A stretch of 64,000 bases of DNA. Source: Marinicrinis sediminis. GTDB taxonomy: Bacteria > Bacillota > Bacilli > Paenibacillales > KCTC-33676. This document shows, in pieces, positions 10,956 to 47,762 of this stretch. Position numbers and translations under genes: made by a program. Position 1 is the first letter of the stretch. Each line of letters opens with the position of its first letter. The notes under the pieces are model-generated. The model ran no database searches, was not told the DNA's origin, and saw only the letters and a program-made list of their open reading frames with translations. Location: NCBI RefSeq assembly GCF_042685085.1, contig NZ_JBHUMM010000007.1, positions 177,846-241,845 of the forward strand, given 5' to 3'.

Positions 10956-11050
10956 GGATCCATTCTCCTCCTTGAAAAAAGGTTCGCCCATTGATTTATC
11001 ATAATGTGATGTGCTAGGATAACATCACACGAAGTTCAAGGGGGCTCTAT

Positions 11051-12505: not shown

Positions 12506-12517
12506 ACCGTTGCCTCG

Positions 12518-14029
12518 TTATGAGTCGGTTCCTGCCGGCTTCATCCGTTTTTGTGATTTGCGGTGCATGTTGATGGTGAGATAGATGAAAAAGACGGCGG
12601 CAATCAAAATGCCGAGTGTAATAGGACGGGTGTACAGGAATGACAGATCGCCACCCGTGGTCGCCACCGATCTCAGGAAATTCCGTTCAATGATGGGGCC
12701 CAGAATCAATCCGAGAAGCAGCGGTGGAACGGGATAGCCAAAACGGTGCATGGCAAAACCGATCAATCCAAACAGCAGCGTGACCCAAACGGTAAAGATG
12801 CTGTTTTGCAGCGCAAAGGTTCCGGTTACGATCAGAACGATAATGATCGGAAACAAGAATTGGGTGGGCACCTTGGCGATTTTCGCAATGTAAATGGAAC
12901 CATACCAGCCTACAATGAGCACGATAATCTCCAGGATCAGAATGCCCAGGAAAAGACTGCTCACCATTCCCCCGGAATGTTCAAACAGTTGGGGACCTAC
13001 CTGAATCCCATGCAGAATCATGGCACCCAGTATGATCGCGGTCGATACATCCCCCGGAATACCGAAGGTTAACAGCGGAATGACGGAGGATGCTTCAGTT
13101 CCACCTGCACCGGATTCGACGGCTGCGACGCCATCCAGCTCCCCTTTGCCGTAATTCTCAGGTGTTTTCGATGATCGAATCGCTTCATTGTAACTGAGAA
13201 AAGAGGCAATGACGGCGCCTGAACCAGGCAAGATGCCGATGAAAACCCCGATAAATCCACCCTTGATCATCGTTTTGAATGAACGTCTGAATTCTTTGAA
13301 AGTCAGGGCTTCGCCTGTGACCTCAATTTTCTGGTTCTGCTGTTGCGAGTGATGACCAGACAAAAATTTCTTCAGCACTTCTGAGATGGCGAATAATCCA
13401 ATGAGTGCGGCTACAAGGGGCACGCCATCTTCCAGGTACGGACTTCCGAAGGTAAAACGGGCTACACCGGTCACCGGATCTCGACCGATCAAGGAAATAA
13501 ATACACCGATCGCAGCAACAAAAAGCGCTTTGGATAATGATTTGCCTGCTACACTTGCCACGACTGACAAACCGAAGATCCCGAGGGCAAAGTACTCGCT
13601 GGGGCCAAAGTTCATGGCCACTTTTGACAGTAACGGCGCAAACAGAACCAGGGCAAGGACAGAAATGAAGGCACCGATAAATTCGGAGATGGCCGACATT
13701 TGCAAGGCTTTTCGAGATTGTCCTTTCAGGGTTAGCGGATATCCATCGAGCGCCGCTGCGGCACCGGCGTTCGTACCCGGTGTATTGATCATAATGGCGG
13801 TAATGGCGCCCGCATATACCGCCCCAAAATAAATCCCAAACAGCAGCAGAATAGCCTGCATCGGCTCCATGGTGAACGTAAGCGGAATGGCAATACCGAG
13901 GGCCATCGGTCCGGTCAGACCCGGTATGGCCCCTACAATGGTTCCGGTCAATACGCCCAGGATCATAAACAGAATCAGCGTTGGATCTGCTAGGGTTTGT
14001 ATGGCTGTGAGGATATCCACGTTGTTCAA
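12518..14029 (-). CDS. tctA: Tripartite tricarboxylate transporter large permease TctA
   Basis: 503 aa, polytopic. The N-terminus DILTAIQTLADPTLILFMILGVLTGTIVGAIPGLTGPMALGIAIPLTFTM is TctA-like. Confidence 0.85.
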   Translation of the reverse strand: MNNVDILTAIQTLADPTLILFMILGVLTGTIVGAIPGLTGPMALGIAIPLTFTMEPMQAILLLFGIYFGAVYAGAITAIMINTPGTNAGAAAALDGYPLTLKGQSRKALQMSAISEFIGAFISVLALVLFAPLLSKVAMNFGPSEYFALGIFGLSVVASVAGKSLSKALFVAAIGVFISLIGRDPVTGVARFTFGSPYLEDGVPLVAALIGLFAISEVLKKFLSGHHSQQQNQKIEVTGEALTFKEFRRSFKTMIKGGFIGVFIGILPGSGAVIASFLSYNEAIRSSKTPENYGKGELDGVAAVESGAGGTEASSVIPLLTFGIPGDVSTAIILGAMILHGIQVGPQLFEHSGGMVSSLFLGILILEIIVLIVGWYGSIYIAKIAKVPTQFLFPIIIVLIVTGTFALQNSIFTVWVTLLFGLIGFAMHRFGYPVPPLLLGLILGPIIERNFLRSVATTGGDLSFLYTRPITLGILIAAVFFIYLTINMHRKSQKRMKPAGTDS

Positions 14030-16278: not shown

Positions 16279-19200
16279 CTATATGATTGCCTTATTTGCA
16301 GCAGGCAACATCGCAGGAGGCATCTCTTCCTTGAGTCTCCATACGAAGTTGACTGGTTTATTTCCATCGTGTTGCACGTATTCCGCTTCTCCCAAAAAGA
16401 CATAGGGAGCGGTGAACTTGTTCTCTTCCTTATAGGCTCTCACAAATAGCGCTACTCCTGTTCCCCTCTCTTGATGATGAATATATCTCTGAGCGGTGTT
16501 GGACTCTACAGATGTTCGACTCTGCGTTTGCCAATGAAACAAATGTTCATTTATCGCATAATCTTCATATTGTGTCGATGGTGAAAAATCCTTGTCCGAT
16601 TTATTCAAGGTAATGAAGAATAGATCCGTTTTTTTATCCGCCATGTACTTCACTCCTTCCCGAAAAGCAGGCGCACGCTCCTCATTCCAATATCCAAATG
16701 CAGCCAGAATCTGATCGACGGAATACGTGCAGTGCACTTCCAAAGGACAAGTGTACGGAAATTCATTTGGTTTACTTACGAAGTCAAGCTTTGACAATGT
16801 ATAAGAAAAAATATCGATGATTTCCTGTTTGAATGATTCTGCATCGAATATATGTTTCAAGGCCTCTTCTACATGGCTGTATCCTAGCTTGGCAGGCTCT
16901 GTGCGATAAAATGTATAATACAATATCTGTAGCATTAGCTGCTGTTCTTCCGTTGCTGGTTTTGTTCCCTGCTTCAAGTAGGACAGCAAGAATTGAAGGA
17001 GTCTTCTGGAGTTAAGATGTAGCAGAGCAGGGATTCGTTTAACCAAATCTGGACGGGTTTGTTCTGGTGTGGCCAACTCATAGAGCCCTGCTTCCGCTTT
17101 CAATCCATAAAAACTTCGTTGACCCATACGACCACCATAAAATTCATGCACACTTATCGCTTCGACTTGCAAAAAATGAGCCAACGTCAACGTAAAACCC
17201 GTATCGGACTCGAAATATTTCATTCTCTGAATCAGATTTCGACGTGTGATGGCGGCTCCTTGTACATTCGCCAGGATATACTGCCTCGCTTGCTTCTCCA
17301 GTTGAATAAAACTACCCCGAGGAAGATGAAAAAAGCCATGTTGAACATAATGTTTAATAGAGTGCCTCGTTTTTCCGGTTAAGGCCCTGAATTTATCCTG
17401 GAAGCGATACTTGTGATGAGCCTGTCCAATAAAATCAAGAACCGTTAAGCACTCCTTGTCCTCATGTAGACGCAGACCTCTGCCGAGCTGTTGCAGGAAG
17501 ACGGTCAAACTGTCCGTCGGGCGTAAAAATAAAAGTGTATTTACGCTTGGAATATCTATGCCTTCGTTATATAGATCAACGACGAAAATCATGCGTAATG
17601 CTCCATTTTCCAGCCTCGTTTTCGCCTGATGACGCTCTACTGCCGTTGAGTTTCCGTGCAATGCCACAGAAGGGATATCTGCTTCATTAAACATTTTCGC
17701 CATATACTTAGCATGATCTACCCCTACACAAAAACCTAATCCCTTCACCTGCTGCATATCGGTCGCATATTTTTCCATACTCTTTATAATTTGTATGACT
17801 CTTCGCTTGTTACGGGTGTATACATTCTCAAGCTCATTTAAATCGTAACCTTTTCTTGTCCACTTTATTTTGGATAAATCTACTTCATCCGTGACTGCAA
17901 AGTATTGAAAAGGGCAAAGCAACTTGCGATCAATCGCATCCGTTAGACGGATTTCTGCTGCAAAACTATCTCCAAAATAGGACAAAATTTCTTTACCATC
18001 CATTCGTTCAGGTGTAGCCGTTAGCCCTAGTAAAATGCTGGGTTGAACGAAAGCAAGCAGCTTTTGATAGGAAGGAGCAGCCGCATGATGAAACTCATCG
18101 ACAACGATGTAATCGTAAAAGGTCGGGGAGATTTTCTCTGTGAGATTCAGTGCGTTCATGCTTTGGATACTTATAAAAAGATGATCTATCGAATCGGCTT
18201 GATACTGGCCAACATGAAGTTCTCCAAAATTCAGGTCTTTCAATATGTAGCGAAAAGTATCTAAACTCTGTCTTAAAATCTCTTCTCGGTGAGCAACAAA
18301 CAGTAGTTTAGCATGAGGCTTTTGTTGGATAAAACGCTTATAATCAAAGGCAGAAACGACCGTCTTCCCTACTCCTGTTGCGGCAACGACGAGATTTCTG
18401 TTACGACCGTATATCTCCCGTTCCGCTTGCAACTTATCTAATATCTCTTTCTGATAGTCATAGGGCTTAATATCAAAAGGGAAAATCTTTGAGGAAGAAT
18501 CTATGGAATGGTCACACTGTAGGGCACTGCGTAGCTTATGATGTTCAGTCTCGTCTGCGGCACGAAATAATTTAAATTCACGGTCATTCCAATAACTTTC
18601 AAATGATGCCTCCATTTTCTTTAGAACATCACAAGCATCCTTTTCCGTTACTTTCAAATTCCATTCGAGTCCACTCGTCAGCGCAGGATTAGACAGATTT
18701 GATGAACCCACGTAAGCTGTGCTGAACCCCGTTTCCCTGTAAAACAAATAGGCTTTCGCATGCAACCTTGTGCGTTTTGTATCGTAAGAAATTTTCAATT
18801 CCGTATTGGACAACTTGCTTAACTCCATAATCGCCTTATAATCTGAAGCGTTCATGTAAGTCGTCGTAATCACTCTCAGCTTGCCACCCTCTGATGTAAA
18901 GCTCTCCAATTGATCCATGAGACAGCGTAATCCACTCCACTTGATAAATGATATCAAAAAATCGATTCGATCTGATGTCATAATCTCTCTCTTTAATTCA
19001 AACAGCATATTGGGTTCATAGTGAGATCCTGTAAATAAGGAGCTTTGAGAAAGTGGCGTGGTAGGACGAATAACCTCTTCATCCCGTACGGATCGAATAT
19101 GATTCAGTCTTGTATAAATATATGTGAGGATTTCTCCCTGTTCATCAAGTCTTAATTGCTCACATTCCTCTGGCCCAAGTGCATGCTTCAATGTCGCAAT

Positions 19201-19434
19201 CATGTCGTTGCAAGTTTGTACTTGAGCAAGCGTTAACGCTTCGTCACTACCGGGCTGTTCGCGAACCATCTTCAGGGCGCGTCGAGTCACAGTCGCAATG
19301 TAGTTGGACAAAAGTTTTCTTGCTTCCTCAACGTTCAATGGCTCTCTGCCAATCTGGTATTCATCTTCGTTTAGCATTAACAACTGCTGTGCGGTCAGTT
19401 TATTGATGACTTGCTCATAGATTCCTTGTTTCAT
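16279..19434 (-). CDS. PLD-family nuclease / SF2 DEAH helicase / C-terminal DUF3427 fusion protein
   Basis: 1051 aa. PLD HxK motif (HAKAYLF...YVGSSNLS). Helicase motif I VVAATGVGKTV, motif II VVDEFHHAAA, motif III GLTATPER. The helicase C-terminal region is followed by a ~300-aa C-terminal domain typical of DUF3427 helicases. Confidence 0.8.
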   Translation of the reverse strand: MKQGIYEQVINKLTAQQLLMLNEDEYQIGREPLNVEEARKLLSNYIATVTRRALKMVREQPGSDEALTLAQVQTCNDMIATLKHALGPEECEQLRLDEQGEILTYIYTRLNHIRSVRDEEVIRPTTPLSQSSLFTGSHYEPNMLFELKREIMTSDRIDFLISFIKWSGLRCLMDQLESFTSEGGKLRVITTTYMNASDYKAIMELSKLSNTELKISYDTKRTRLHAKAYLFYRETGFSTAYVGSSNLSNPALTSGLEWNLKVTEKDACDVLKKMEASFESYWNDREFKLFRAADETEHHKLRSALQCDHSIDSSSKIFPFDIKPYDYQKEILDKLQAEREIYGRNRNLVVAATGVGKTVVSAFDYKRFIQQKPHAKLLFVAHREEILRQSLDTFRYILKDLNFGELHVGQYQADSIDHLFISIQSMNALNLTEKISPTFYDYIVVDEFHHAAAPSYQKLLAFVQPSILLGLTATPERMDGKEILSYFGDSFAAEIRLTDAIDRKLLCPFQYFAVTDEVDLSKIKWTRKGYDLNELENVYTRNKRRVIQIIKSMEKYATDMQQVKGLGFCVGVDHAKYMAKMFNEADIPSVALHGNSTAVERHQAKTRLENGALRMIFVVDLYNEGIDIPSVNTLLFLRPTDSLTVFLQQLGRGLRLHEDKECLTVLDFIGQAHHKYRFQDKFRALTGKTRHSIKHYVQHGFFHLPRGSFIQLEKQARQYILANVQGAAITRRNLIQRMKYFESDTGFTLTLAHFLQVEAISVHEFYGGRMGQRSFYGLKAEAGLYELATPEQTRPDLVKRIPALLHLNSRRLLQFLLSYLKQGTKPATEEQQLMLQILYYTFYRTEPAKLGYSHVEEALKHIFDAESFKQEIIDIFSYTLSKLDFVSKPNEFPYTCPLEVHCTYSVDQILAAFGYWNEERAPAFREGVKYMADKKTDLFFITLNKSDKDFSPSTQYEDYAINEHLFHWQTQSRTSVESNTAQRYIHHQERGTGVALFVRAYKEENKFTAPYVFLGEAEYVQHDGNKPVNFVWRLKEEMPPAMLPAANKAII

Positions 19435-19470
19435 GTGATGCCTCCCCGACGAGATCCTTACCCCATCTCA

Positions 19471-20349
19471 TTATGCTTCATACCTGCGCGCATTTCCCCG
19501 AAACACTTCACGCACATGCCATTCCAGGTACAGATCTCCAGGTGCATACTCAGATCGAACCGGCTCCATGATGGCTTTTCCATGATAACGAAGAAGCCAC
19601 TCTTCAAAACCTCGGGTACCGTGCGCTTCCTCCGACACCCATAACCGATGTTGGTCTGTCACTGTAAATACACCGCGATCAAACAGTTTATGATGAAGCG
19701 AGCATAGTGCAAGACCGTTCTCTTCCCTGTCCGGTCCTCCCGATTGATGCCAGCGGATATGTGCCGCTTCCACGCCAACAAGTTGATGTCCCAGTCGCAC
19801 ATGAAACCCGCATACCGCGCAGGAATAAGCATACGCTCGAAGCACCCGCTCTCGAAATTTTGGATCTCGTGCCTTCTTCCGATAAGTATGGACGTGAAGG
19901 GCTAGACCGACAGCCTGTAAAATGTCTTCATGGATACTTTCAGGAAAATGATCCTCCAAAATATAGATAGCAGACTGACTAATCAGGGCCGGGTCTTGCT
20001 GCAACAACTCTTCAACCTCTGGCGTAAACTGTCCCTTGATGCCCTGATTTCGCAGTTGTTTATCCGTGAAGCTACTCCGATCCACTGTAGCACTAAGTTC
20101 CCAAATCCCATCCGTCGCAAGCCGAACAAAAGGCTCCTCAGGGTGATAGGAACGTCTTGGGGGGCCAAATTCTTTGAGCAATTGAGTCAGGGGCCCCTTT
20201 GCCTCTTCATAGGATACGACGATATTCTCTCCGCGTTGAAATCTGCCCAGTGCATAAAGGATGAACAGTGGCTTATGAGGAGCTCGCTGCCCATGTTTTT
20301 TCCATATCGATAAGTGTGACAGACGCCGCAACCATTCGTGTTTATCCAT
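19471..20349 (-). CDS. HNH endonuclease-family protein (predicted restriction-endonuclease-like, COG3440-type)
   Basis: 292 aa. C-terminal HNH (CAVCGFHVRLGHQLVGVEAAHIRWHQSGGPDREENGLALCSLHHKLFDRGVF). The N-terminal ~150 aa is a separate domain (QRAPHKPLFILYALGRFQRGE...). The gene lies 37 nt upstream of the helicase gene on the same strand. Confidence 0.7.
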   Translation of the reverse strand: MDKHEWLRRLSHLSIWKKHGQRAPHKPLFILYALGRFQRGENIVVSYEEAKGPLTQLLKEFGPPRRSYHPEEPFVRLATDGIWELSATVDRSSFTDKQLRNQGIKGQFTPEVEELLQQDPALISQSAIYILEDHFPESIHEDILQAVGLALHVHTYRKKARDPKFRERVLRAYAYSCAVCGFHVRLGHQLVGVEAAHIRWHQSGGPDREENGLALCSLHHKLFDRGVFTVTDQHRLWVSEEAHGTRGFEEWLLRYHGKAIMEPVRSEYAPGDLYLEWHVREVFRGNARRYEA

Positions 20350-23148: not shown

Positions 23149-23164
23149 CGTTGATTTCCTCCTG

Positions 23165-23330
23165 TGGCTTCTGTCATGTTACTTATTTCTCTCTTCTCTA
23201 TGATCTCTATCTTCATTATCTTCTCTAGCTTCTTGAACTTCACTATCTTCTATGTATTTTTTGTGTCTTTGTATTCACTATCTTCTCTGTGTTCACTATC
23301 TTCTCTATTAGTCTATCGCTGCTGGGCATA
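23165..23330. repeat. CT-rich low-complexity region with reiterated CACTATCTTCTCT-like units
   Basis: Direct inspection shows tatcttctct / cactatcttctat / cactatcttctctgtgttcactatcttctctatt repeats. Non-coding. Confidence 0.6.
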
Positions 23331-23655
23331 GCGCCCTCTCGCGCCTATCCTCTAGGCGAACCTTTCCGCTTCCCGTCAGTTCAGCGGAACATGGATTCGA
23401 TTGGCAATCTGCCTGCATTTAGTATAGCGGATAATGCCTTGCCTTGTCCAAGCATTTGACACGATGAAGCTACAGCACGCTTTTCCTCGGTCAGGATCAT
23501 ACGCACTTCGACTCTGACTGACAACATCTCTTATATTTCGCTATGGAGAGGTCATGTAAAATATGGTAACATTAGCAAAGATCATCAACTAAAGGAGGAA
23601 TAGACTTTTGCCGGGTTCATCCCGGTGCACGAAGAAAAAATGAAAATGAGGTGAA

Positions 23656-24813
23656 ATGATGAAGAATATCGCCCTGTATCCATTCAACAAAATTACGAAG
23701 GGTTTGATCAAATTCAGAGATTTGATCGATGCACGAATTGGTGCGGTCATCGACTTTACGATTGATTCTCGCGATCATGTGGAATGGAAACTATTACAAG
23801 AAGATAGTCTTGGTATTTTCCTTACGAACAATCTGGAGGAAGGACTGGAAGGGATCGATACCCTGATTTTGAATGATACGGGTACCCCTTTTGGCAATAG
23901 CCAATCTGCCTATCAGAAATTTGACCTGACCCAGATGTGGAGAAAGCTGGTCCTATACGCTGCCCATCGCGGCATTACCGTCATCAGCGTGCATGAAATT
24001 ACGGATGCGGATACCCGGCGCTGGCTGCAAGCACATGATATTGAACTGCATGTGGATCAGCAACTGAATGCAGACATGTTAAGTGAAATGAGCCAACATT
24101 ATAACCTGCAGGATGATACAGAAATCGGTACCTATCTCAAACACTTTGAGCTTGATCAACGACTGCTGGACAGCTCCCCTTCCATTTTAAAAGTAGCCAT
24201 TTTCGCAACGAGAGGTTGTTTAGGCAAATTCACGACCCAGATGAGCATATACCGGGAATTAACCCACAGGGGCAGGGCGACTACCGCGATTATCACGGAA
24301 CCGACTGCCTTTTTATTTCAGCAGCCCGGAGCAGATATTATGAAGTTTCTGTCTCAGCAAACCCTGGCCCAATACCCCTACTACATTCATGCACTCGTGC
24401 AAAAAGCCGAGCAAGCCGGAGCGGAGATTGTCCTGATGGCCGGACAGGGATCGTTGCTGCCAAACCATAACTTTATCATTGCTTCTACCAAACTCGCATA
24501 TCTGAGTGCCTATCAGCCGGATGTTACCTTGCTTGTCGTTGGCTATGATGACGACGATCGAATACAAGATTGCCTCGACGTGTTGCGAATCTATGGCAAT
24601 CAGAAAAAACCGCACAGGCTGCTGCTGCCTAATCGAATTGAAATTGGATTCGGGGAGTACGATATCCGATCTGAGGCAGAAATGAACGAACGGAAACAGG
24701 AACTTGAACGCAAATTCAATATAGAGGTGGAATTTGTCCTGCATGCAGACAAGGTTGTCGATGAGATGGAGGCATTAATCGATGAAAAAAAGATCACGGT
24801 CTCCGTTTCATAG
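23656..24813 (+). CDS. Uncharacterised-family protein, paralog A (tentatively DUF1611/DgcN-like; Rossmann-like N-terminal domain plus degenerate P-loop-like C-terminal domain)
   Basis: 385 aa. GAGGTG RBS. Conserved blocks shared with the downstream paralog: ALYPFNKITKGLIKFRDL, IFATRGCLGKFTTQMSIYRELTHRGR, ITEPTAFLFQQPGADIMKFL. Confidence 0.7.
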   Translation: MMKNIALYPFNKITKGLIKFRDLIDARIGAVIDFTIDSRDHVEWKLLQEDSLGIFLTNNLEEGLEGIDTLILNDTGTPFGNSQSAYQKFDLTQMWRKLVLYAAHRGITVISVHEITDADTRRWLQAHDIELHVDQQLNADMLSEMSQHYNLQDDTEIGTYLKHFELDQRLLDSSPSILKVAIFATRGCLGKFTTQMSIYRELTHRGRATTAIITEPTAFLFQQPGADIMKFLSQQTLAQYPYYIHALVQKAEQAGAEIVLMAGQGSLLPNHNFIIASTKLAYLSAYQPDVTLLVVGYDDDDRIQDCLDVLRIYGNQKKPHRLLLPNRIEIGFGEYDIRSEAEMNERKQELERKFNIEVEFVLHADKVVDEMEALIDEKKITVSVS

Positions 24814-24879
24814 CGATTTCCATGCGATCGTCTGCGCTCACATGACAATGCCGTCACCTAATTCAGGAAAAAGAGGTGA

Positions 24880-26025
24880 ATGCAAGGGATGTTGAATCAG
24901 GTTGCCTTGTACCCGTTTGATAAAATTACGCGTGGTCTCATCCGGTTTCGCGATTTGTTGCAGGTCGAGATTCGTTCCGTTATCGATTTTACATGTGACC
25001 ACACAGAGGATATTGGATCACGGCTAGGCGGTGAAACGACCGGCATTCCGATGACGAACGACATCGAAAAAGGCTTACAGCAAGTCGATATCCTGATTGT
25101 AAATGATCTGGGGAACAACCCTTTTGCCGATCCTGCCCATAACCTGGCGGAAAAATGGCGAACACTCGTCAAATGTGCGTATGAAAAAGGCATAACCATC
25201 ATCAGCCTGCATGAGATTGTGGAACCGGGAACGAAGCAATGGCTGCGTGCCCATGAGATTTCCCTTCAATTTGATGACCAGCTGGATCATGAGCTGCTGG
25301 CGGATATGGACATGCATCCTCTGCGTGGCAAGACAGAACTGGAAAGGTACTTTCGGCATTTGGAAGCGGATCATACGGGTTACACCTCGTCTCCTTCTTC
25401 CCTGCGTGTCGGAATTTTTGCCACCCGAGGTTGTTTGGGCAAATTCACGACTCAGATGAGTCTGTTTCGCCAATTGAAAAAAAGAGGAAGATCCGCTACC
25501 TCTATCATTACAGAACCGACCGCCTTTCTGTTCCAGCAGCCGAGTGCAGATATTTTCAAGTTCTTGGCTACCCAGACCATAGACCAATATCCCTATTATA
25601 TTCAAACCGTTGCGAAAAAAGCTGAGCAAGCCGGTTCGCCATATATTCTACTGGCCGGACAGGGCGCGCTGCTGCCTCACCATGACTTCCTGATTACCTC
25701 TAATCAGGTTGCTTATCTGAAAGCTTTCGATCCAGACGCCATATTGCTAGTGGTCGAATATGAGGATGATCAGAAAATTCGGGACAGTCTCGATTTCTTG
25801 CGTATATATGGCTATGAAAAGCCGATTCAACTGCTTCTTCCTGATCGAATGGAAACCGGTTTATCTGAGATTGTCTTTAAGACCCCCGCAGAGATGGCGC
25901 AGCGAAAACAGCAATTGGAAAGCCAGTTTGACATTCCCGTCGTTTATATCAAGCAGCCGGATCAAATAGCAGACCGTCTGGAACAATTGCGGGAACAGAA
26001 AGAACATGCCGCTGTCATGCTCTAG
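24880..26025 (+). CDS. Uncharacterised-family protein, paralog B of the upstream gene
   Basis: 381 aa. About 50-60% identical to paralog A by eye (ALYPFDKITRGLIRFRDL, IFATRGCLGKFTTQMSLFRQLKKRGR, ITEPTAFLFQQPSADIFKFL). The start may be the ATG at 24889. Confidence 0.7.
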   Translation: MQGMLNQVALYPFDKITRGLIRFRDLLQVEIRSVIDFTCDHTEDIGSRLGGETTGIPMTNDIEKGLQQVDILIVNDLGNNPFADPAHNLAEKWRTLVKCAYEKGITIISLHEIVEPGTKQWLRAHEISLQFDDQLDHELLADMDMHPLRGKTELERYFRHLEADHTGYTSSPSSLRVGIFATRGCLGKFTTQMSLFRQLKKRGRSATSIITEPTAFLFQQPSADIFKFLATQTIDQYPYYIQTVAKKAEQAGSPYILLAGQGALLPHHDFLITSNQVAYLKAFDPDAILLVVEYEDDQKIRDSLDFLRIYGYEKPIQLLLPDRMETGLSEIVFKTPAEMAQRKQQLESQFDIPVVYIKQPDQIADRLEQLREQKEHAAVML

Positions 26026-26104
26026 GAGCGTACAAGTTGCGATCTTGCCATGTATCGATTCGCACATCTCATGAAGGGATAGGAGAAGGAAGAGGTGAAG
26101 ATGA

Positions 26105-27322
26105 ATGTCTTTTATGACCTTGTACAGGGATATTATTGAGCCTGACTTATGCACATCTTGCGGTTTATGTGAAGCAGTCTGTCCGAAAGACGTGGTAGGC
26201 TTTCATGCAACAGATTCCATTCCCCTTCCCTGGTTCAAGGGGGAGATGAATGAAGTGCTGGACGTCTGTCAGGACTGCACCCTTTGTTCAGACATTTGTC
26301 CAGGCTATGATACCGGTGTGCCGCAGACGGAAGAGCGGATGTTTGCGCGCACCCGATCGGAAGAGGAACGATGGACCGGCATCTATCGTTATGCCTGCCA
26401 ACTTACAGCGTCTTCGCCGGACATTTTGCAAAAAGCTTCGGCAGGAGGGGCTGGCACAACCCTTGCCATCACAGCCCTGACGGAAGGCTTGGCTGATGCC
26501 GTTATTGTGGTGGGCAGAGATGAGGAAGAGCCCTGGAGACCCCGTGCCTTTCTAGCGGACTCTGTCGATCAGATCATAGAGAGTGCGCAGTCCAGCTATT
26601 GCATTACCCCAAATCTGCATCTGTTAAAAGAAACTCACTATGAGAAAATCGGCTTGATCGGGGTGCCCTGCCAAATTCAGGGAATTCAAAAGTTGCTGAA
26701 CCATGGCGAGCAGGAAGCACTGAAAACACTCGCCGATCGCATTCAGTTTACGATTGAACTCGGCTGTGCTTCTAGTACCGCCATTGCAGGCACCGAGCAT
26801 ATCATTACCGATCTGCTGCATCTCTCCCTCGACGAGGTGCAAGAGATGAAGTATCGGGACGGGGGCTACCCGGGTGAATTCAAGGTCATAACGAAAGCCG
26901 GCGAAGAACACCGCCTGCCGTTCTTCAGGCTGGTCGAGGAGTTCAAGGCGCACAAGACGTTCCGCTGTCTCACGTGCCCAGACTGGTGGTCCGGTGTGGC
27001 TGACATCTCCATTTCGGACGGAGATCCCAACATATTCGAATCCAGTAAATTCGGTGGCAATCACGCTCCTTCCTCCACAGTGCTGGTGCGAACCGAGATG
27101 GGGGAACAACTCATGAACCTGGGCCTTGCAAAGGGGCATTTCACGTTAAAGGACTATACCTTTATCAACAATCTTGGCCTGGAGAGAAAGAGACAGCGTT
27201 ACCGCCACTATGAAACAAATTCAGCACGGAAAATCCCCTTGCCACCTGTACATGAATCATTTAGCGGAGATATTTTATCTGACGATGAGGTGATCGCGGT
27301 TGGAATCCGTAATAAGACATAA
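26105..27322 (+). CDS. FrhB/FdhB-like Fe-S flavoprotein (coenzyme F420 hydrogenase beta-subunit family) with an N-terminal 2x[4Fe-4S] ferredoxin domain
   Basis: 405 aa. CTSCGLCEAVCP and CQDCTLCSDICP ferredoxin motifs. FrhB-type blocks (ASAGGAGTTLAI, IGLIGVPCQIQGIQKL). Confidence 0.75.
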   Translation: MSFMTLYRDIIEPDLCTSCGLCEAVCPKDVVGFHATDSIPLPWFKGEMNEVLDVCQDCTLCSDICPGYDTGVPQTEERMFARTRSEEERWTGIYRYACQLTASSPDILQKASAGGAGTTLAITALTEGLADAVIVVGRDEEEPWRPRAFLADSVDQIIESAQSSYCITPNLHLLKETHYEKIGLIGVPCQIQGIQKLLNHGEQEALKTLADRIQFTIELGCASSTAIAGTEHIITDLLHLSLDEVQEMKYRDGGYPGEFKVITKAGEEHRLPFFRLVEEFKAHKTFRCLTCPDWWSGVADISISDGDPNIFESSKFGGNHAPSSTVLVRTEMGEQLMNLGLAKGHFTLKDYTFINNLGLERKRQRYRHYETNSARKIPLPPVHESFSGDILSDDEVIAVGIRNKT

Positions 27323-27383
27323 TACGGCATCTGTTTCCAGTTTGCCTGAACAATTTGATCTGGCTATCCGGCGAAAGCCGCTG

Positions 27384-28679
27384 ATGAGCCAAACGGTATT
27401 TGAACAGATATCGACAGACAAATCCATCTCGCAAAGAGCAATCGTATGGAGCGCACTCACAGAAGGCACTTCGAGAATCTGCGGAGTATTGCAATCGGAC
27501 GACATTTTCCACTGTATCGAGGCTTTGAAGCAGCTCGGTGTACATATCGAGTGGGATCAGGCTGATGTCATCGTGAAAGGGGTGGGGCTGACGGGATTGA
27601 AACAGCCCCGCTCTGACCTCTATATCGGAAATTCGGCGACTGCGACAAGGCTGATCATGAGCCTGATCGCAGGCAGTTCGCTGGATGTGGTCATCAGAGG
27701 AAATGCCTTGCTTTCCAGACGACCGATGGATTGGGTGGTAGAGCCGCTCCGTCAAATGGGCGCCGCGATTACGTATTTGGGCGAGGAAGGTTTTCTGCCT
27801 GTGCGAGTACAAGGGGCATTTCCGCTAAAGCCCATCCACTGGAACGCCACCGTTGCCAGTGCCCAGCAAAAATCGGCCGTATTGACAGCCGCCTTGTTTG
27901 CGAATGGGGTCACCGCTTTCCGGCAGCAATGTCAGAGCCGCAATCATACAGAACTCATGCTCCAAGACATGGGGGCTCACGTTAAGATGGTAAGCGAGCA
28001 GGTGACTGAGCTTCAAGGGTGTATGCCGCTGAAAGCGCAAGACAGGCATGTCCCGGGCGACATATCCTCTGCCGCATTTTTGATGGCTGCCTATTTGCTT
28101 CGCGGGGAGGAGATGCCGCCTCTCGTCCTGAAAAAAGTGGGGGTCAATCCGACCCGCACCGGGTTTGTGCAAGTGTTGCAGGCCATGGGAGCGGATATCA
28201 GCTATAGCGAGGAAACTTTATGGGGGAGTGAACCGGTAGCGGACCTTCATATTCAACCTGCTCGTCATCTGCAGCCTGTCCGGATCGAAGGGATGGCCTT
28301 TGTGCAAAGCTTGATTGATGAAATCCCCCTGCTTGCTGCCATCAGCACGGTAATCCATGGAGATACGACCATCATCGATTGCATGGAGTTGAAGGACAAG
28401 GATACGAATAGGATCGATACGACAGCGGATGTGCTGAGGCGATTCGGAGCGGAGCTGCGAACTTGTTCAAAGGGAATGATCATCATCGGGGGCAAGTCGT
28501 TGCAGGCGTGCCACACGCATAGCCATGGCGACCATCGCATTGCTATGACCGCCGCGATTCTGGCAAGCAGCCTGCCTGAGGCGTCGGTTATTGAGGATGC
28601 GGCATGTCTCAAAGTCTCTTATCCGACCTTTTTGGAGGATCTGGCTCATTTTGCGGATATTCGCATCATACCGAAATAA
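27384..28679 (+). CDS. EPSP-synthase-family enolpyruvyl transferase (AroA-like)
   Basis: The ORF track starts at 27300, but that is a TTG start overlapping the upstream gene. The ATG at 27384 is the likely start. EPSPS motifs: DKSISQRAIVWSALTEGTS, GNSATATRLI (GNAGTAxRxL), RRPMDWVVEPLRQMGAAI, HVPGDISSAAFLMAAYLL, DHRIAMTAAILAS. Confidence 0.75.
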   Translation: MSQTVFEQISTDKSISQRAIVWSALTEGTSRICGVLQSDDIFHCIEALKQLGVHIEWDQADVIVKGVGLTGLKQPRSDLYIGNSATATRLIMSLIAGSSLDVVIRGNALLSRRPMDWVVEPLRQMGAAITYLGEEGFLPVRVQGAFPLKPIHWNATVASAQQKSAVLTAALFANGVTAFRQQCQSRNHTELMLQDMGAHVKMVSEQVTELQGCMPLKAQDRHVPGDISSAAFLMAAYLLRGEEMPPLVLKKVGVNPTRTGFVQVLQAMGADISYSEETLWGSEPVADLHIQPARHLQPVRIEGMAFVQSLIDEIPLLAAISTVIHGDTTIIDCMELKDKDTNRIDTTADVLRRFGAELRTCSKGMIIIGGKSLQACHTHSHGDHRIAMTAAILASSLPEASVIEDAACLKVSYPTFLEDLAHFADIRIIPK

Positions 28680-28729
28680 ACTGTAAGAGGATGGTTCATC
28701 ATTTGCATGTTCATCAAAGGGAGTGAGCG

Positions 28730-29992
28730 TTGTTGGAAGCCAACTTGTCTATGCAGCCTAATCGCCAGGTGCTGTCACATCCATCATTGTGGAAAAACAA
28801 GACATTCAAGTGGATTTTGCTCGGATATATTTTCTCTGTGCTCGGAGACCGGTTCCATAGCGTCGCCATCAGTTTTTGGGTGTTGAAGGAAACCGGAAGC
28901 GCCAGGCTGATGTCCATTGTGCTGCTCATTCATATATCAATGAGCCTTTTTTTCGGAGCGTTTGCGGGCACAATTGCAGACCGAACGGATCGCAGAAAAC
29001 TGATGTACCGGATGGACTTTATTCGCGTTCTGTTTGTTGTCGGGATCGCTTGCATGCTGCTGTTTCCATTTCAAGAATTCCGGTTTGGTGTGATCATCCT
29101 CCTGATTAGCCTCACCGCTTTTGCAGGCTTGTTCCAGGCCCCCGCTTCACAGGCTTCTCTCATCAATATCGTGGGAAAAGACCAAATTCAAAAAGCGACC
29201 GGCGCACTCAGCTTTGCAGACAATATTGCCGGTATTACAGGCTTGTCTATGGCTGGCTTTGTCGTGGCTGCATTAGGCGGGGCTTCCGCGATCTTTATCG
29301 ATGCGCTTACGTTTCTGATCTCGGGATTGTGCGTGCTGGCTGCCGGAAAATTCCCGAGTCCCATTCATCAAAACAAGGAACGCAAGTCTTTTCTGTCCGA
29401 TTTAAAAGAAGGCATCCAGTACATTTTCAAAAATCGTTTTGTCAGATGTGTAGCTTTGATCAACCCGCTGCTGATCTTGTTTTATCTCACTTCTCTGCTG
29501 CTCATTCAGGTGCTGGCGGTCAAGGAATGGCGAGTCAGTTCCATTGAATTCGGTATGCTTGAAGCTTGTGTACCGCTCGGATACATGCTGGGGGCATTCA
29601 TGATTATGCGTATCGATCAGAGGCTTAGAAAACGGGGCTGGTTGATTCTCGGCAGTATGGCCTTGCTCGGCCCTCTCTTTATCGCGATTTCTTTCGTTCA
29701 ATCTGTTTGGGTGGGATTGTTTTTTGTCCTGTGCCACGGCTTTATTTTTTCCTATTGTACGTTGCTCGTTATGGTCATCATTCGCTTGAAGGTCGAAGAG
29801 AGCATCCAGGGCAGAGTGTTTGCCACTCTGGGATCGATCACCTCGGTTGTTCCGCCCCTCGGTCTGATCATTGCCCCTTTCTTCGCGGATGCCTACAGTG
29901 CATCTTCGGTATTGGGTGTGACCGGTATCTTGTTCTTCATCGTGGCGCTCTGCTTCCTGTTATGGCTGAAACCCGTCCGGCAATTTGAATGA
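28730..29992 (+). CDS. MFS transporter (12 TM, efflux type)
   Basis: 420 aa with an MFS-type hydrophobicity pattern. Probable TTG start with an AGGGAG RBS. Confidence 0.75.
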   Translation: MLEANLSMQPNRQVLSHPSLWKNKTFKWILLGYIFSVLGDRFHSVAISFWVLKETGSARLMSIVLLIHISMSLFFGAFAGTIADRTDRRKLMYRMDFIRVLFVVGIACMLLFPFQEFRFGVIILLISLTAFAGLFQAPASQASLINIVGKDQIQKATGALSFADNIAGITGLSMAGFVVAALGGASAIFIDALTFLISGLCVLAAGKFPSPIHQNKERKSFLSDLKEGIQYIFKNRFVRCVALINPLLILFYLTSLLLIQVLAVKEWRVSSIEFGMLEACVPLGYMLGAFMIMRIDQRLRKRGWLILGSMALLGPLFIAISFVQSVWVGLFFVLCHGFIFSYCTLLVMVIIRLKVEESIQGRVFATLGSITSVVPPLGLIIAPFFADAYSASSVLGVTGILFFIVALCFLLWLKPVRQFE

Positions 29993-33164: not shown

Positions 33165-33965
33165 CTACTCTCGCGCTCGGGGTCGATTGTTGCTATAAGG
33201 AATACACATGGGGAACCCGTAGACGGGGTCCTGGACGATCTTGCTCTCCAAATGAAACACGTCATGGACTAATCTTTCCGTAATCACCGCTTTCGGATCA
33301 CCCTGCTCATATACCCCCTGATCTTTGATCGCAACAATATGGTCTGCATAGCGACAAGCCATATTGAGATCATGCAAAACCATCACAATCGTTCGTTGCT
33401 CTTTCTGATTCAACTGAGCGAGCAGGTCCAATATTTCGATTTGATGCGTCATATCCAGGAACGTCGTGGGTTCATCCAATAAGATCGTATCGGTATTTTG
33501 CGCCAACGTCATCGCGATCCAGGCCCGTTGCCGCTGCCCCCCGGACAATGAATCAACCGCTTGATCCGCATATTCCGTTAAATGAGTGCTCGCCAGAGCC
33601 ATTTGCACCTGCTGCTCATCCTTTTTTGACCATTGCTGTAGCCAGCTCTGATGGGGATAGCGTCCTTGTTTGACAAGCTGAAACACTGTCATGCCTTCAG
33701 GTGTAATGGGACCTTGGGGGAGTATAGCCAGTTGTTTGGCCAGCTCCTTGGTAACCATGGAAGAAATCTTTTTTCCATCCAGCATGATTGCCCCATTGCT
33801 CGGCTTCATTAAACGGGCAAGAGATCGAAGCAAGGTGGATTTCCCACAACCATTACTCCCCACAAAAACGGTTATTTTTCCTTTGGGAAGCTCTATATCC
33901 AGGTTATGAATGATTTGTTTTTCTCCATAAGTTAACGTTAATTTTTTTGTTTCCAAAGCAATCAT
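33165..33965 (-). CDS. Iron-siderophore ABC transporter ATP-binding protein (FepC/FecE-like)
   Basis: 266 aa. Walker A GSNGCGKST, signature LSGGQRQRAWIAMTLAQ, Walker B ILLDEPT. Confidence 0.85.
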   Translation of the reverse strand: MIALETKKLTLTYGEKQIIHNLDIELPKGKITVFVGSNGCGKSTLLRSLARLMKPSNGAIMLDGKKISSMVTKELAKQLAILPQGPITPEGMTVFQLVKQGRYPHQSWLQQWSKKDEQQVQMALASTHLTEYADQAVDSLSGGQRQRAWIAMTLAQNTDTILLDEPTTFLDMTHQIEILDLLAQLNQKEQRTIVMVLHDLNMACRYADHIVAIKDQGVYEQGDPKAVITERLVHDVFHLESKIVQDPVYGFPMCIPYSNNRPRARE

Positions 33966-33982
33966 GCGGCTTCACTCCTTTA

Positions 33983-35020
33983 TTAGGCATAACGATTACG
34001 ATACAGTAAATATATAAAAAATGGAGCACCGATTCCGGATACAAAAACTCCAGCAGGCAAATCTAGCGGAAGAAATGCGGTTCTCGCCACCGTATCCGCC
34101 AGGACGACGATTAGACCCCCAAGCAATGCAGATACAGGGAGCAGACTCGCAAACGATCGTCCTACCAACTTTCTAGCGATATGTGGCGCGATCAATCCTA
34201 CGAATCCAATGCCTCCTGCAAACGCTACCGCTGATCCTGCCAGTGCTACACTAATAAAAAGCAATACAAATCGATTCACTTGCACTTTAGAACCTAGACT
34301 GAGCGCCAAGTCATCTCCAAGTTCCTGCACATTTACTTTGCGAGATAACAGGAGGGATAGCGGGACGAATACAATGACCCATGGCAACATCGCATAGACA
34401 TCGTTCCAATTGGCCCCATATACGCTTCCTGTTAACCATATATAGGCCTCACTCGTGGAGTAAGTGGGACTTAGCACAATCATCATAGTCACAAGCCCTC
34501 CAGCAGCGGATTGAACCCCAATTCCGATAAGGACAAGCCTGATTGGAGAAATACCATTTTTCCATGACAAGGAATAGATGATGACAAAGACGATCCCTGC
34601 TCCTGCTATCGCGGCCACGGGTATCCACTTTAAGCTTATATCTGAAAAAAACGTCATACAACTAACCGCAGCAACTGAAGCTCCTCCCGTGATCCCGATA
34701 ATATCTGGAGAAGCCAGTGGATTGCGGACAACTCCTTGCAAGATTAATCCTGAAATAGCCAGTGATGTCCCAACAAGAAAGGCAAGCACAATTCTAGGCA
34801 GTCTGAGTGTATCGAGAATAAAGGTATATTCTCCATTTCCCAAACCAATCAAATGCTTGAGGACATCCAGGGGATTTATCCACGTACTTCCAGCGGATAG
34901 ACTGATCATAATCAGGACACCCGTGCAACATAACAAGGCTAGGAACATTTTTATCGCGAAATGATCCAGCAAAATCGATACGGTATCCGTCCGATTACGC
35001 AGGATCGTATATTTTTTCAT
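33983..35020 (-). CDS. FecCD-family ABC permease
   Basis: 345 aa, polytopic, FecCD-like. Overlaps the upstream permease gene by 4 nt. Confidence 0.85.
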   Translation of the reverse strand: MKKYTILRNRTDTVSILLDHFAIKMFLALLCCTGVLIMISLSAGSTWINPLDVLKHLIGLGNGEYTFILDTLRLPRIVLAFLVGTSLAISGLILQGVVRNPLASPDIIGITGGASVAAVSCMTFFSDISLKWIPVAAIAGAGIVFVIIYSLSWKNGISPIRLVLIGIGVQSAAGGLVTMMIVLSPTYSTSEAYIWLTGSVYGANWNDVYAMLPWVIVFVPLSLLLSRKVNVQELGDDLALSLGSKVQVNRFVLLFISVALAGSAVAFAGGIGFVGLIAPHIARKLVGRSFASLLPVSALLGGLIVVLADTVARTAFLPLDLPAGVFVSGIGAPFFIYLLYRNRYA

Positions 35021-36039
35021 TTTTGATTAACCCCCCTGCGTGCGAGATAAATAAAAAAGGGTGCGCCGATCATAGCAGTCATAACCCCAATTGGCATTTC
35101 TTCAGGCATAATGATAAACCTTGCTCCTATATCAGCCAGTAGTAACAAGCTTGCACCACAAATTGCACTATAGGGGAGGATCCAGCGATAATCGGTTCCT
35201 ACCATAGAACGAACGATGTGAGGGACAATAAGTCCCACAAAGCCAATCGAACCGCCCACAGCCACAGAGCCTCCAGCTAATATAACAATGGAAATCGACA
35301 TCCCTATTTTTACTGAGATGACTTTTTGGCCAAGTCCTTTCGCGATGTCTTCACCAGAAGTCAGTATATTAATCGAACGCGCAAGAAAAAAAGACAGTAC
35401 GCCGGCTCCCAGCATCAATGGCCAGATTGGCTGAAGCATCTCGATACTTCTGCCAGAGACTGAGCCTCCTATCCAAAATAGTACGCCCTCTAGGCTCTGC
35501 TCATTTAGCACTAATAAACCTTGTGTAAAAGAGCTGAATAATGCGGTCAATGCCGTCCCCGCTAATATGATTTTGATAGGAGACAATCTCTCTCTTCCCA
35601 ACGATCCCAGCGTAAAGACCATAACCGCCGCGATTGCCGCTCCCAGAAAAGCAAACCACATTAATTGAATCAAGGAATGAAAGGAGAAAAAAACGGTCGC
35701 AAACACAACAAAAAATAACGCACCTGCGTTAATTCCAAAGATACTTGGCGATGCAATCGGATTCCTCGTTAATGCCTGCATCAGCGCCCCTGCCACTGCA
35801 AGGCTCGCACCAATCGTTACGGCTATAACAGCTCTGGAAAGACGGCTGGTCATCATGATGATATGTTCGGTGGAATTGTCATCATAATGGAAAATGGCCT
35901 CCAAGACGGTCGCAGGAGAGGTCGTCGTCTGACCAAAAGCCATGCTGCTCCAAAAAGCGAGGAACAAGAAGCCCATTCCTAACCAAATGCCGACAATTTT
36001 ATGAGATGTTCGGATGAAGATAGGATTCATATGTATCAC
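35017..36039 (-). CDS. FecCD-family ABC permease
   Basis: 340 aa, polytopic, FecCD-like. Confidence 0.85.
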   Translation of the reverse strand: MIHMNPIFIRTSHKIVGIWLGMGFLFLAFWSSMAFGQTTTSPATVLEAIFHYDDNSTEHIIMMTSRLSRAVIAVTIGASLAVAGALMQALTRNPIASPSIFGINAGALFFVVFATVFFSFHSLIQLMWFAFLGAAIAAVMVFTLGSLGRERLSPIKIILAGTALTALFSSFTQGLLVLNEQSLEGVLFWIGGSVSGRSIEMLQPIWPLMLGAGVLSFFLARSINILTSGEDIAKGLGQKVISVKIGMSISIVILAGGSVAVGGSIGFVGLIVPHIVRSMVGTDYRWILPYSAICGASLLLLADIGARFIIMPEEMPIGVMTAMIGAPFFIYLARRGVNQK

Positions 36040-36119
36040 TCTTTTCCATCAACTTGCATGCTATGTAATCCCTAGATGCTAAAAATAGGGGGATGACTCC
36101 CCCTATGCACTTTCTACTC

Positions 36120-37166
36120 TTATTTTAATTCGTAATGTTCATAGATTTGATCGAGCATCTGATTTGCAGAGATATATCCTCCGCCCATATTCCATGCTAC
36201 CTCATCTACGATCGTGACCTGATCATTCTGAACCGCATTCAAGTTCTTCCAAAGTGGATGATTGGTCCACTCTTTATAAGTTTGCTCAATCATGGCTGCA
36301 TCCGGACTATGACCGTCCGCGTTGAAAATAAAGAATACATCTGCATCCATCGAAGGAATACTTTCTTTATCCGTTAATTTCAATACGACATTGCCATCAT
36401 CCGCTGCCTTTTGTTGCACTTCAGAACGGACAAAGCCTAGTTCACTCAGGATATCTCCGGCAAAACCAGTTACATAAATCCGCGCATGATCCGTTCTGAA
36501 ATTGAGGACGGATACTTCTAACGGCCAATTCTCACCAAGCTTGGTTGCGATTTTTGTTTTAAAATCTTCTGTCCGCTCATTCCAGTTAGACAGCAATTCA
36601 TCTGCCTTTTCCTTCTGATTGGTTGCTTGTCCAATTAACTGTACCGTATCTTTGAATTTATATACCGTTTCATGCGTCACGGTAGGTGCGATCTGTGAGA
36701 GCTGTTCATACACTTTTTCATGACGCAGCTTGGAAGCAATAATCAAATCCGGATTCAGTTTGGATATCTCCTCCAGGTTTGGTTGTGTTTCCAAGCCAAC
36801 GATAGGAACATCTTTTAGTTCATCACGCAAGTATTCATACATCGGCTGCTGTGTCCAGGACTCCACCACTCCCACTGGAATTACCCCTAAGGCTACGGCT
36901 ACATCTGTCGCCCCCTGGTAAAGGGTTACTACTCTCACTAGTGTTCCTTCCACGGTTGTTTCACCCATGGCGTGCTGGATAACGCGCACATCCTTGTTAT
37001 CACTCGTATTATTGGCAGCTGTATCATTGCTGGAACCTTCGTTATTCGTTTGATTAGTATGATTTGCAGCATGATTGGAATGGTTATTCTCCCCTGCTCC
37101 CCCACATCCTGCGATCATGACAAGCACCACCATCATCATACTCACGATCATTAACGTTTTCTTCAT
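36120..37166 (-). CDS. Siderophore/iron-complex substrate-binding lipoprotein (FhuD/FecB family)
   Basis: 348 aa. Lipoprotein signal MKKTLMIVSMMMVVLVMIAGCGG. Asn/Ser-rich linker followed by a class III SBP body. Confidence 0.85.
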   Translation of the reverse strand: MKKTLMIVSMMMVVLVMIAGCGGAGENNHSNHAANHTNQTNNEGSSNDTAANNTSDNKDVRVIQHAMGETTVEGTLVRVVTLYQGATDVAVALGVIPVGVVESWTQQPMYEYLRDELKDVPIVGLETQPNLEEISKLNPDLIIASKLRHEKVYEQLSQIAPTVTHETVYKFKDTVQLIGQATNQKEKADELLSNWNERTEDFKTKIATKLGENWPLEVSVLNFRTDHARIYVTGFAGDILSELGFVRSEVQQKAADDGNVVLKLTDKESIPSMDADVFFIFNADGHSPDAAMIEQTYKEWTNHPLWKNLNAVQNDQVTIVDEVAWNMGGGYISANQMLDQIYEHYELK

Positions 37167-47686: not shown

Positions 47687-47762
47687 TACTTAACCTCCAA
47701 TCTTTTATATATTTAGTAATAGAGGCTAGTTTGTAACATTTCGAAACAAACTAGCCTATAAT

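Follow-up and report, generated by a model that had tools for sequence, protein, structure and literature searches.

Do the five co-directional genes at positions 23656-29992 of the DNA analyzed here make up a biosynthetic unit, or do they include an ordinary aroA gene that happens to lie beside unrelated neighbors? The DNA is a stretch of 64,000 nucleotides from Marinicrinis sediminis (contig NZ_JBHUMM010000007.1, positions 177,846 to 241,845), referred to below as the window. Two of the genes encode an FrhB-like Fe-S flavoprotein and an enolpyruvyl transferase of the EPSPS (5-enolpyruvylshikimate-3-phosphate synthase) family. We found that this FrhB-like/EPSPS-like pair is an invariant unit, obligate partners across phyla and sometimes fused. 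As the pair recurs in varied biosynthetic neighborhoods, we take the Marinicrinis operon to be the form that a broad family of biosynthetic-type clusters has in the Paenibacillaceae. Our best explanation, to which we give about an even chance, is that the five genes are an accessory biosynthetic operon for an exported small molecule, built on the FrhB-like/EPSPS-like module.

All five genes are intact open reading frames (ORFs) on the + strand, co-directional and with short gaps as in the original prediction, which was made from the sequence alone (66, 79, -23 and 50 nt in order, the negative value being an overlap). The DUF1611-like paralog A (385 aa, 23656-24813) is followed by paralog B (381 aa, 24880-26025). 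The two are 51% identical over 379 aa (E 3e-142) and both contain the motif GCLGKFTTQMS, in agreement with their description as tandem paralogs. Then come the FrhB-like flavoprotein (405 aa, 26105-27322), the diverged EPSPS-family enolpyruvyl transferase (459 aa, TTG start, 27300-28679) and an MFS_3 (EntS-like) transporter, presumably an exporter (420 aa, TTG start, 28730-29992). The start of the EPSPS-like gene inside the FrhB-like gene looks real, because a GAGGTG ribosome-binding site lies 7 nt 5′ of the TTG at 27300. The flanks consist of unrelated genes on the opposite strand (DUF3995 upstream, GGDEF and SPFH downstream of the cluster). The five-gene arrangement is not a matter of chance: the same order of the four enzyme genes recurs in Paenibacillus in other surroundings.

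In more than 50 loci, drawn from Firmicutes, Actinobacteria, Proteobacteria and metagenomes and including Bacillus cereus, Streptomyces, Agrobacterium vitis and soil/sediment metagenomes, the FrhB-like and EPSPS-like genes stood side by side, overlapped or were fused in frame. A further 58 loci came from a metagenome scan that started from FrhB-like motifs, and in essentially every locus of sufficient length the next gene was EPSPS-like. At E<=1e-20 we found 141 relatives of the FrhB-like protein, spread over Firmicutes, Streptomyces, Kitasatospora, Amycolatopsis, Mycobacteroides, Rhodococcus, Nostoc, Brenneria and Agrobacterium vitis. One locus (L046, 9980-12568) encodes an 862-aa in-frame fusion of the two proteins with both Pfam domain sets. 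A 957-aa in-frame fusion is encoded at 9695-12568 of another (L050), both loci being from freshwater or sediment metagenomes; the L046 fusion is flanked by genes for an FMO-like monooxygenase, a short-chain dehydrogenase/reductase (SDR), a SIS-domain protein and a sulfotransferase. Short proteins combining FrhB with a partial EPSPS (P0175, P0196, P0234, P0237 and P0243) were left out as possible contig ends or frameshifts, and a plasmid search with the A. vitis FrhB-like protein gave no match. The MurA/MurB system forms an enolpyruvyl ether and afterwards reduces it to the lactyl ether. Genes that are obligately paired and in places fused, as seen here, are what consecutive or coupled chemistry of this kind would predict.

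The company that the pair keeps varies between lineages. In B. cereus, the cluster contains genes for SBP_bac_5, an L-amino-acid-ligase-type ATP-grasp protein, an MFS transporter, an SDR, a creatininase-family protein, a class-III aminotransferase, a canonical DUF1611 protein, the FrhB-like and EPSPS-like proteins and a GNAT protein. The metagenome contig L025 has this B. cereus-type core together with a DAHP synthase, PTE, an FMN reductase and EamA. In Streptomyces, the neighbors are SDR, creatininase-family, aminotransferase, PhzF, FemAB-like, ATP-grasp and SBP_bac_5 genes, and the cluster adjoins a DAHP synthase and a chorismate-binding/GATase pair (TrpE/PhzE-like). In A. vitis they are an aminotransferase, nonribosomal peptide synthetase (NRPS) A-C and A-T proteins, EamA and GNAT, and other pair clusters carry NRPS A-T/C modules and polyketide synthases (PKS). 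A Pfam census of 80 same-strand neighbors in 12 loci returned mostly SDR, AMP-binding/PP-binding, Aminotran_3, PKS, GNAT, MDR dehydrogenases and exporters; it was limited to same-strand ORFs in unannotated loci, where the ORF caller gave spurious long antisense ORFs at high GC. The extra DAHP synthases present in two cluster types (L025 and L030) point to a precursor from the shikimate pathway. A 701-aa protein of Breoghania sp. (P0255) has a creatininase-family domain fused to an FrhB-like protein, which ties the creatininase-family gene of the clusters that we class as types II-IV functionally to the pair.

We found no description of the FrhB-like/EPSPS-like pair or of the gene set in the literature searched, which left most subscription journals outside, so that this is absence of evidence only. 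Within that literature, the original statement that no described pathway has this gene set stands, and the Fe-S flavoprotein/EPSPS module is previously undescribed, its anatomy and cross-phylum conservation being solid and new.

How far has the EPSPS-like enzyme moved from AroA? The window protein scored 298.9 bits against PF00275 (cut-off 22.8) and 337.2 bits against the aroA equivalog TIGR01356 (cut-off 287.25). It reached 76.8 bits with the murA model TIGR01072, below the cut-off of 392.7. It aligned end to end with the Streptococcus pneumoniae EPSPS 1RF4 (289 bits). Its homologues fall into two groups, 18 clusters at 409-477 bits versus ordinary AroA at 332 bits or less. The proteins of the 18-cluster clade are 438-463 aa long, have a conserved extension of some 35 aa at the N-terminus in common, and are only 37-44% identical to housekeeping AroA. 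Together with the invariant substitutions described below, this split upholds the view that the gene is not an ordinary aroA.

The window protein retains, in Escherichia coli numbering, K22, S23, R27, N94, T97, R100, R124, Q171, D313, K340, R344, H385 and R386. The ligands of phosphoenolpyruvate (PEP) and shikimate-3-phosphate (S3P) are all present in it and in the Firmicute clade, and the PEP ligands are kept in the partnered EPSPS-like sequences. We compared the clade with the 102 closest non-cluster AroA sequences, which were taken as housekeeping and in which the positions compared are 92-99% conserved. The clade has Gln in place of His at position 26, Ala in place of Gly (99%) at 96 (Ala113 in the window protein), Trp in place of Arg at 128, Glu or Gln in place of Val at 172 and Asp in place of Val at 339. 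The motif preceding D313 is VQS instead of IPR, and the catalytic Glu at 341 (99%) is replaced by Asp (Asp368 in the window protein). Ala96 and Asp341 occur in 18/18 clade members. Motifs suited to recognizing the partnered subfamily are SISQR, GNSAT, VQSxIDE and KDT[ND]R. Among 45 distinct partnered sequences Gly96 is never found, being Ala in the main group and Ser in a subgroup preceded by an aminotransferase gene, and Arg128 is likewise absent from all 45 (Trp or Glu); position 339 is Asp, Gly or Phe, and position 341 is Asp in the main group. Around the active site, the substitutions amount to a loss of two positive charges and a gain of two negative ones, which suggests an acceptor or transition state other than that of S3P and PEP. 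The best guess for the acceptor remains S3P or a close mimic, because the S3P ligands are intact in the window's group and extra DAHP synthases accompany the pair elsewhere.

The FrhB-like protein consists of an N-terminal 2x[4Fe-4S] ferredoxin domain followed by FrhB_FdhB_N (PF04422, 75.3 bits) and FrhB_FdhB_C (PF04432, 88.4 bits). Cysteines 16/19/22/26, 55/58/61/65 and 189/221/288/291 are invariant in 18 diverse members, and these twelve residues in three groups of four suggest three [4Fe-4S] clusters. The AlphaFold model (pLDDT 91) had FrhB-family subunits as its top Foldseek matches, 8RIU_B coming first (E 1e-25, TM 0.70/0.76), followed by FrhB, Fsr and HCAR. The protein fell below the equivalog cut-offs for frhB (TIGR03289, 107.9 vs. 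331.5 bits) and FpoF (96.9 vs. 475 bits), and no hydrogenase or formate dehydrogenase genes lie beside the gene, whose constant neighbor is EPSPS-like. BciB and HCAR, FrhB-family enzymes from organisms without F420, are reductases that depend on ferredoxin, the group reduced by BciB being a vinyl; FbiB reduces dehydro-F420-0. Reduction of an enolpyruvyl C=C bond is chemically reasonable given the properties of these F420-free enzymes, and by analogy with them would be the simplest reading of the FrhB-like enzyme, given its obligate coupling to a transferase.

We therefore considered how the five products might act together. The EPSPS-like enzyme is predicted still to bind PEP, in a remodeled active site, and the FrhB-like protein to be an oxidoreductase with three [4Fe-4S] clusters and a flavin; their genes would be translationally coupled here, in the form that is fused elsewhere. 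The EPSPS-like enzyme would take the enolpyruvyl (1-carboxyvinyl) moiety from PEP and attach it to a phosphorylated hydroxy-acid at a hydroxyl, the acceptor being S3P or something that closely mimics it. The FrhB-like protein, receiving electrons via its ferredoxin-like domain, would reduce the vinyl ether to a 1-carboxyethyl (lactyl) ether, a step that parallels MurA/MurB and BciB. The DUF1611-like paralogs, probably as a pair, may create amide or acyl linkages on the intermediate or join it to a partner derived from a sugar, and the MFS_3 protein would export the product. A more specific version, which is possible but which we hold only tentatively, is that the pair is a widespread module making 'dihydro-EPSP', a lactyl ether on S3P or a mimic of it, with an Fe-S/flavin enzyme in place of MurB.

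Is the operon itself conserved? The four-enzyme core was found in identical order in eight Paenibacillus species or strains besides M. sediminis (P. macerans, P. herberti, P. fonticola, P. jilunlii, P. helianthi and strains DS2015, HW567 and 22594), with paralog A first in the cluster in all eight and with flanks that differ. The original prediction would have been undermined had the neighbors of the EPSPS-like gene not been conserved in relatives; they are kept across Paenibacillus, and its picture of a compact, conserved, non-housekeeping cluster was borne out. P. monticola (L020) has only a decayed remnant, from which we conclude that the cluster is dispensable. In keeping with a biosynthetic gene cluster, it combines synteny across species, variable flanks, a patchy distribution and an exporter. 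The idea that the five genes are a self-contained novelty had to be given up: they are instead the Paenibacillaceae version of a far wider cluster family, in which the paralogs are a lineage-specific accessory and not part of the core.

Some Paenibacillus clusters are interrupted between paralog B and the FrhB-like gene by an insert (L010, 12306-15998; also L006, L009 and L011). It encodes a CGTase-like GH13 protein (with TIG and CBM20 domains and no signal peptide), a 147-aa protein without a Pfam match and a GT4 glycosyltransferase; the insert of L008 lacks GH13. Its content points to a glycosylated product in those species.

The transporter can be exchanged between clusters. Orthologues of the MFS_3 gene (38-42% identity) lie upstream in divergent orientation, beside a LacI regulator, in six Paenibacillus loci, and in P. 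macerans a MatE gene stands downstream in its place. The M. sediminis protein scored 104 bits with MFS_1, 85 bits with MFS_3 and 187 bits with TIGR00900; it is EntS-like but far under the equivalog cut-off. An efflux-family gene accompanies the clusters everywhere, whether MFS_3 or MatE, consistent with the export that the MFS gene had been taken to suggest. About 3 kb downstream of the cluster are the genes of an ABC uptake system of the iron-siderophore type (ABC ATPase, FecCD permease and two more ORFs; 33165-37166, - strand). We considered a siderophore as the product and rejected it: that reading rested only on the EntS-like MFS protein and these nearby genes (33-37 kb), and other species have MatE and no such neighbors.

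The DUF1611-like paralogs matched DUF1611_C at 32.8 bits (paralog A) and 33.4 bits (cut-off 25), with DUF1611_N not detected. Their fold is of the DgcN/TM0796 type, a Rossmann-like N-terminal domain followed by a BioD-like P-loop domain with the motif TRGCLGKFTTQ; after DUF1611/DgcN, the next fold neighbors were BioD and CTP synthase. A profile of the clade found only 2G0T in the PDB (E 3.6e-5), and neither paralog matched the DgcN equivalog NF041892 at E<=0.01. Thus, of the tentative assignment to DUF1611 and DgcN, the two-domain fold is confirmed, whereas the Pfam match is marginal (33 bits) and the DgcN identity is without support from its own model. A search of the literature on DUF1611 and D-glutamate N-acetyltransferase turned up nothing useful. 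Homologues are rare, with 36 clusters among 5.8 billion proteins and, by HMMER over 1.84 billion representatives, 18 clade members at E<=1e-30. In Paenibacillus, copies A and B each make up an orthologous lineage of their own; the two Marinicrinis copies group with one another. These separate lineages, the conservation of TRGCLGKFTTQ in both copies and a 728-aa protein that is a tandem fusion of two DUF1611-like units suggest that the two paralogs work together. We propose an acyl- or amide-forming role for them because canonical DUF1611, ATP-grasp, FemAB-like or NRPS proteins take their place in other pair clusters.

Outside the Paenibacillaceae, the DUF1611-like clade is single-copy, occurs without the FrhB/EPSPS pair, and is always beside a GH13_20-type α-glucan hydrolase and usually beside an NRPS of about 3,200 aa. 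In Clostridia/Lachnospiraceae the order is a GH13_20-type glycosidase (~588 aa), the single DUF1611-like gene and an NRPS of ~3,220 aa (L005/L013, L014, L015/L022, L016, L018 and L021, with the match at ~10001-11065 in each). A second NRPS (~1,970 aa) follows in L005 and L021, the L021 copy being without a BtrH_N match. In a variant (L023/L024), NRPS-PKS genes lie upstream instead, and in Halonatronum (L019) the set consists of GH13, an A-T protein, BtrH_N, the DUF1611-like gene and MFS_3. This GH13/DUF1611-like/NRPS arrangement seems to be an uncharacterized cluster family of its own. Other domain fusions were also seen: P0297 (771 aa) joins a DUF1611-like domain to CBM53 and GT2, and in the next tier of relatives some 235 representatives of ~600 aa join one to Peptidase_S8. 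The latter probably relate to a weak TIGR04066 'peptide maturation' match, following which we looked for an upstream small ORF or precursor peptide and found nothing convincing.

Several points weigh against an exported lactyl-ether product. We infer every chemical step, as well as the acceptor, the electron donor and the product. The M. sediminis cluster is without the SDR and aminotransferase genes that are common elsewhere. In the actinobacterial and environmental group, Ala occupies the positions aligned with S23 and S197, so that different cluster types may use different acceptors. It is also conceivable that the FrhB-like enzyme reduces something other than the enolpyruvyl group or works in a flavin-dependent reaction, for instance an elimination resembling that of chorismate synthase. 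The EPSPS-like protein exceeds the aroA equivalog threshold and could therefore simply make EPSP; Ala96 is also present in the genuine EPSPS of Agrobacterium CP4, and G96A alone is no proof of a new function. It should be noted that the scan, which covered the 64-kb window, revealed no aromatic-pathway genes, and that a second, canonical aroA in M. sediminis is hypothetical. Finally, the tie of the DUF1611-like clade to GH13 α-glucan enzymes, the GT2/CBM53 fusion and NRPS is unexplained by the role proposed for it.

Four other explanations were weighed against the same data. That this is a housekeeping aroA beside unrelated genes by chance is hardly credible. The gene does pass the NCBIfam aroA threshold and is annotated as aroA in GenBank, but its neighbors are conserved across genera and phyla and it lies ~80 bits from housekeeping AroA, with the low identity given above. 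Moreover, it appears to be strain-variable in B. cereus, where only ~20 contigs carry it, and the copy in P. monticola is decayed. Alternatively, the enzyme may be a true EPSP synthase that supplies a precursor to a chorismate-derived pathway. In this case it would form, with the FrhB-like protein providing flavin reduction or the elimination itself, a channel from S3P to chorismate or an isomer, the product of which the DUF1611-like enzymes would modify. Besides passing TIGR01356 and keeping all S3P and PEP ligands in the Firmicute group, such an enzyme would be at home beside the DAHP synthase, the TrpE/PhzE-like enzyme with GATase and the PhzF of the Streptomyces cluster and the DAHP synthase and FMN reductase of L025, and AroA copies are known in asukamycin and phenazine clusters (PMC4943196). 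There would be no evident reason, however, for the invariant G96A/S, R128W/E, V339D and E341D changes across phyla, nor for the fusion to an Fe-S flavoprotein, and a chorismate-using enzyme is absent from most pair clusters. To our knowledge, no FrhB-family member is a chorismate synthase. On balance we regard precursor supply as rather unlikely.

The EPSPS-like protein might instead be an insensitive target copy, conferring self-resistance in clusters whose product inhibits EPSP synthase or some other enzyme that uses PEP. All main-group sequences have Gly96Ala, the classical glyphosate-insensitivity change, the clusters never lack an exporter and the gene lies within an accessory cluster. 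A resistance protein would not be expected to be coupled or fused in frame to one biosynthetic enzyme in every cluster type; furthermore, the catalytic Glu341 is changed too, and the other enzymes of the clusters differ so greatly that they would not all make one inhibitor. We consider this reading quite improbable, and give no more credit to a catabolic or salvage pathway, where the FrhB-like enzyme would oxidize an imported lactyl ether to the enolpyruvyl ether and the EPSPS-like enzyme would phosphorolyze this to PEP and an alcohol, in the use of sugars or α-glucans. The AroA reaction is cited as reversible (Zhang and Berti 2006, via PMC4943196), Paenibacillus clusters adjoin LacI regulators, maltodextrin-type ABC importers and GH13 genes, and orphan SBP_bac_5 binding proteins occur in cluster types II-IV. 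Yet the transporters belong to efflux-type families (MFS_3/EntS-like, MatE and EamA), the ATP-grasp ligases, NRPS, PKS, FemAB-like and GNAT partners are typical of biosynthesis, and no sugar genes adjoin the M. sediminis cluster.

How does an accessory biosynthetic operon of this type compare with known systems? With MurA/MurB it would share a transferase of the EPSPS/MurA superfamily, a flavin reductase and the proposed conversion of a vinyl to a lactyl ether, the carboxylate of which can be extended by ligases. It differs in that the transferase is AroA-type, the reductase is an Fe-S protein of the FrhB family and not of the NADPH/FAD MurB fold, and the acceptor is probably not a UDP-sugar. 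Like BciB and HCAR, the latter among its structural matches, the FrhB-like protein has the FrhB fold and would carry Fe-S clusters and a flavin in organisms without F420; in contrast, it is only ~17-18% identical to HCAR, has the extra N-terminal 2x[4Fe-4S] domain seen in FpoF/Fsr, and would act on an unrelated substrate. The paralogs are 15-21% identical to the DgcN/DUF1611 structures (7XRJ, 2G0T and 2OBN), from which they also differ in forming a tiny clade, in their tandem duplication and in the GH13, NRPS or Peptidase_S8-fusion links found elsewhere; the canonical DUF1611 protein of the B. cereus cluster itself scored 188.8 bits against a DgcN cut-off of 480. The B. cereus relative recalls bacilysin-type bacABCDEFG clusters in combining a shikimate-pathway-derived step with an SDR, an aminotransferase, an L-amino-acid-ligase-type ATP-grasp ligase and an MFS exporter, but there are no prephenate decarboxylase or BacB-type genes, and the M. 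sediminis cluster lacks the ligase, SDR and aminotransferase.

AroA paralogs have been recruited to natural-product clusters before, namely in the asukamycin and phenazine clusters and as the arsenoenolpyruvate synthase of the Streptomyces arseno-organic cluster (PMC4943196). In those cases, too, a diverged AroA lies in an accessory cluster, the repurposed clade is recognized by phylogenomics and the known examples exist beside a housekeeping copy. No FrhB-like partner is mentioned in that paper (the term 'F420' does not occur in its text), and the arseno-organic AroA is coupled to a PEP-mutase-like enzyme. The partnered subfamily described here is set apart by its obligate FrhB-like neighbor or fusion and its own substitution signature. 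We take the cluster to be a biosynthetic cluster with a recruited, repurposed AroA paralog, a kind already documented, and the Fe-S flavoprotein partner to be the new part.

EPSP synthase is the target of glyphosate and among the best-studied enzyme targets. A subfamily that is predicted to keep PEP binding, never has Gly96 and is tied to an Fe-S flavoprotein would therefore be new enzymology. As its members are now annotated as plain aroA, they are missed by routine annotation and probably by cluster-mining tools. The pair provides a searchable signature for dozens of uncharacterized clusters in Bacillus cereus, Streptomyces, Agrobacterium vitis, Paenibacillus and soil metagenomes, and the Paenibacillaceae five-gene operon is the smallest context in which to learn what the pair makes. 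Should the pair indeed make dihydro-EPSP or its like, it would define an unrecognized class of reduced-chorismate/lactyl-ether building blocks for ATP-grasp, NRPS, PKS and DUF1611-type ligases in several phyla, with the Paenibacillaceae operon as the minimal exported form. If the partnered enzymes still make EPSP, they would be candidates for natural glyphosate-insensitive EPSPS variants.

The region upstream of the operon (23149-23655, + strand) is presumed to contain its promoter and leader. We found a weak sigma-70-like site at 23508-23537 (9/12 matches) and an AGGAGG at ~23594, with promoter-like sites being no more numerous in the scan than in shuffled sequences. A terminator scan gave many calls, which were within genes and which we distrust, and an Rfam scan detected no riboswitch, T-box or leader family near the cluster. 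The 500-bp intergenic region between DUF3995 and paralog A also contains, at 23177-23308, TCT-rich direct repeats with a 9-nt period (ATCTTCTCT / CACTATCTTCTCT, eight overlapping copies).

Elsewhere in the window, the - strand region 16279-20349 encodes a 1051-aa protein (PLD nuclease, ResIII helicase, DUF3427) followed by an HNH_2 endonuclease gene, and looks like a defense island next to the cluster. Rfam matches comprised a purine riboswitch (305-404), a group II intron D1-D4 domain (42223-42364) and a tmRNA (63580-63946) with the tag GKQQTNYALAA, all on the - strand. Lastly, the first half of the window is ~50% GC, and a low-GC block (31-42%) at 44000-62800 (- strand) contains ORFs of 1796, 1158, 881 and 612 aa.

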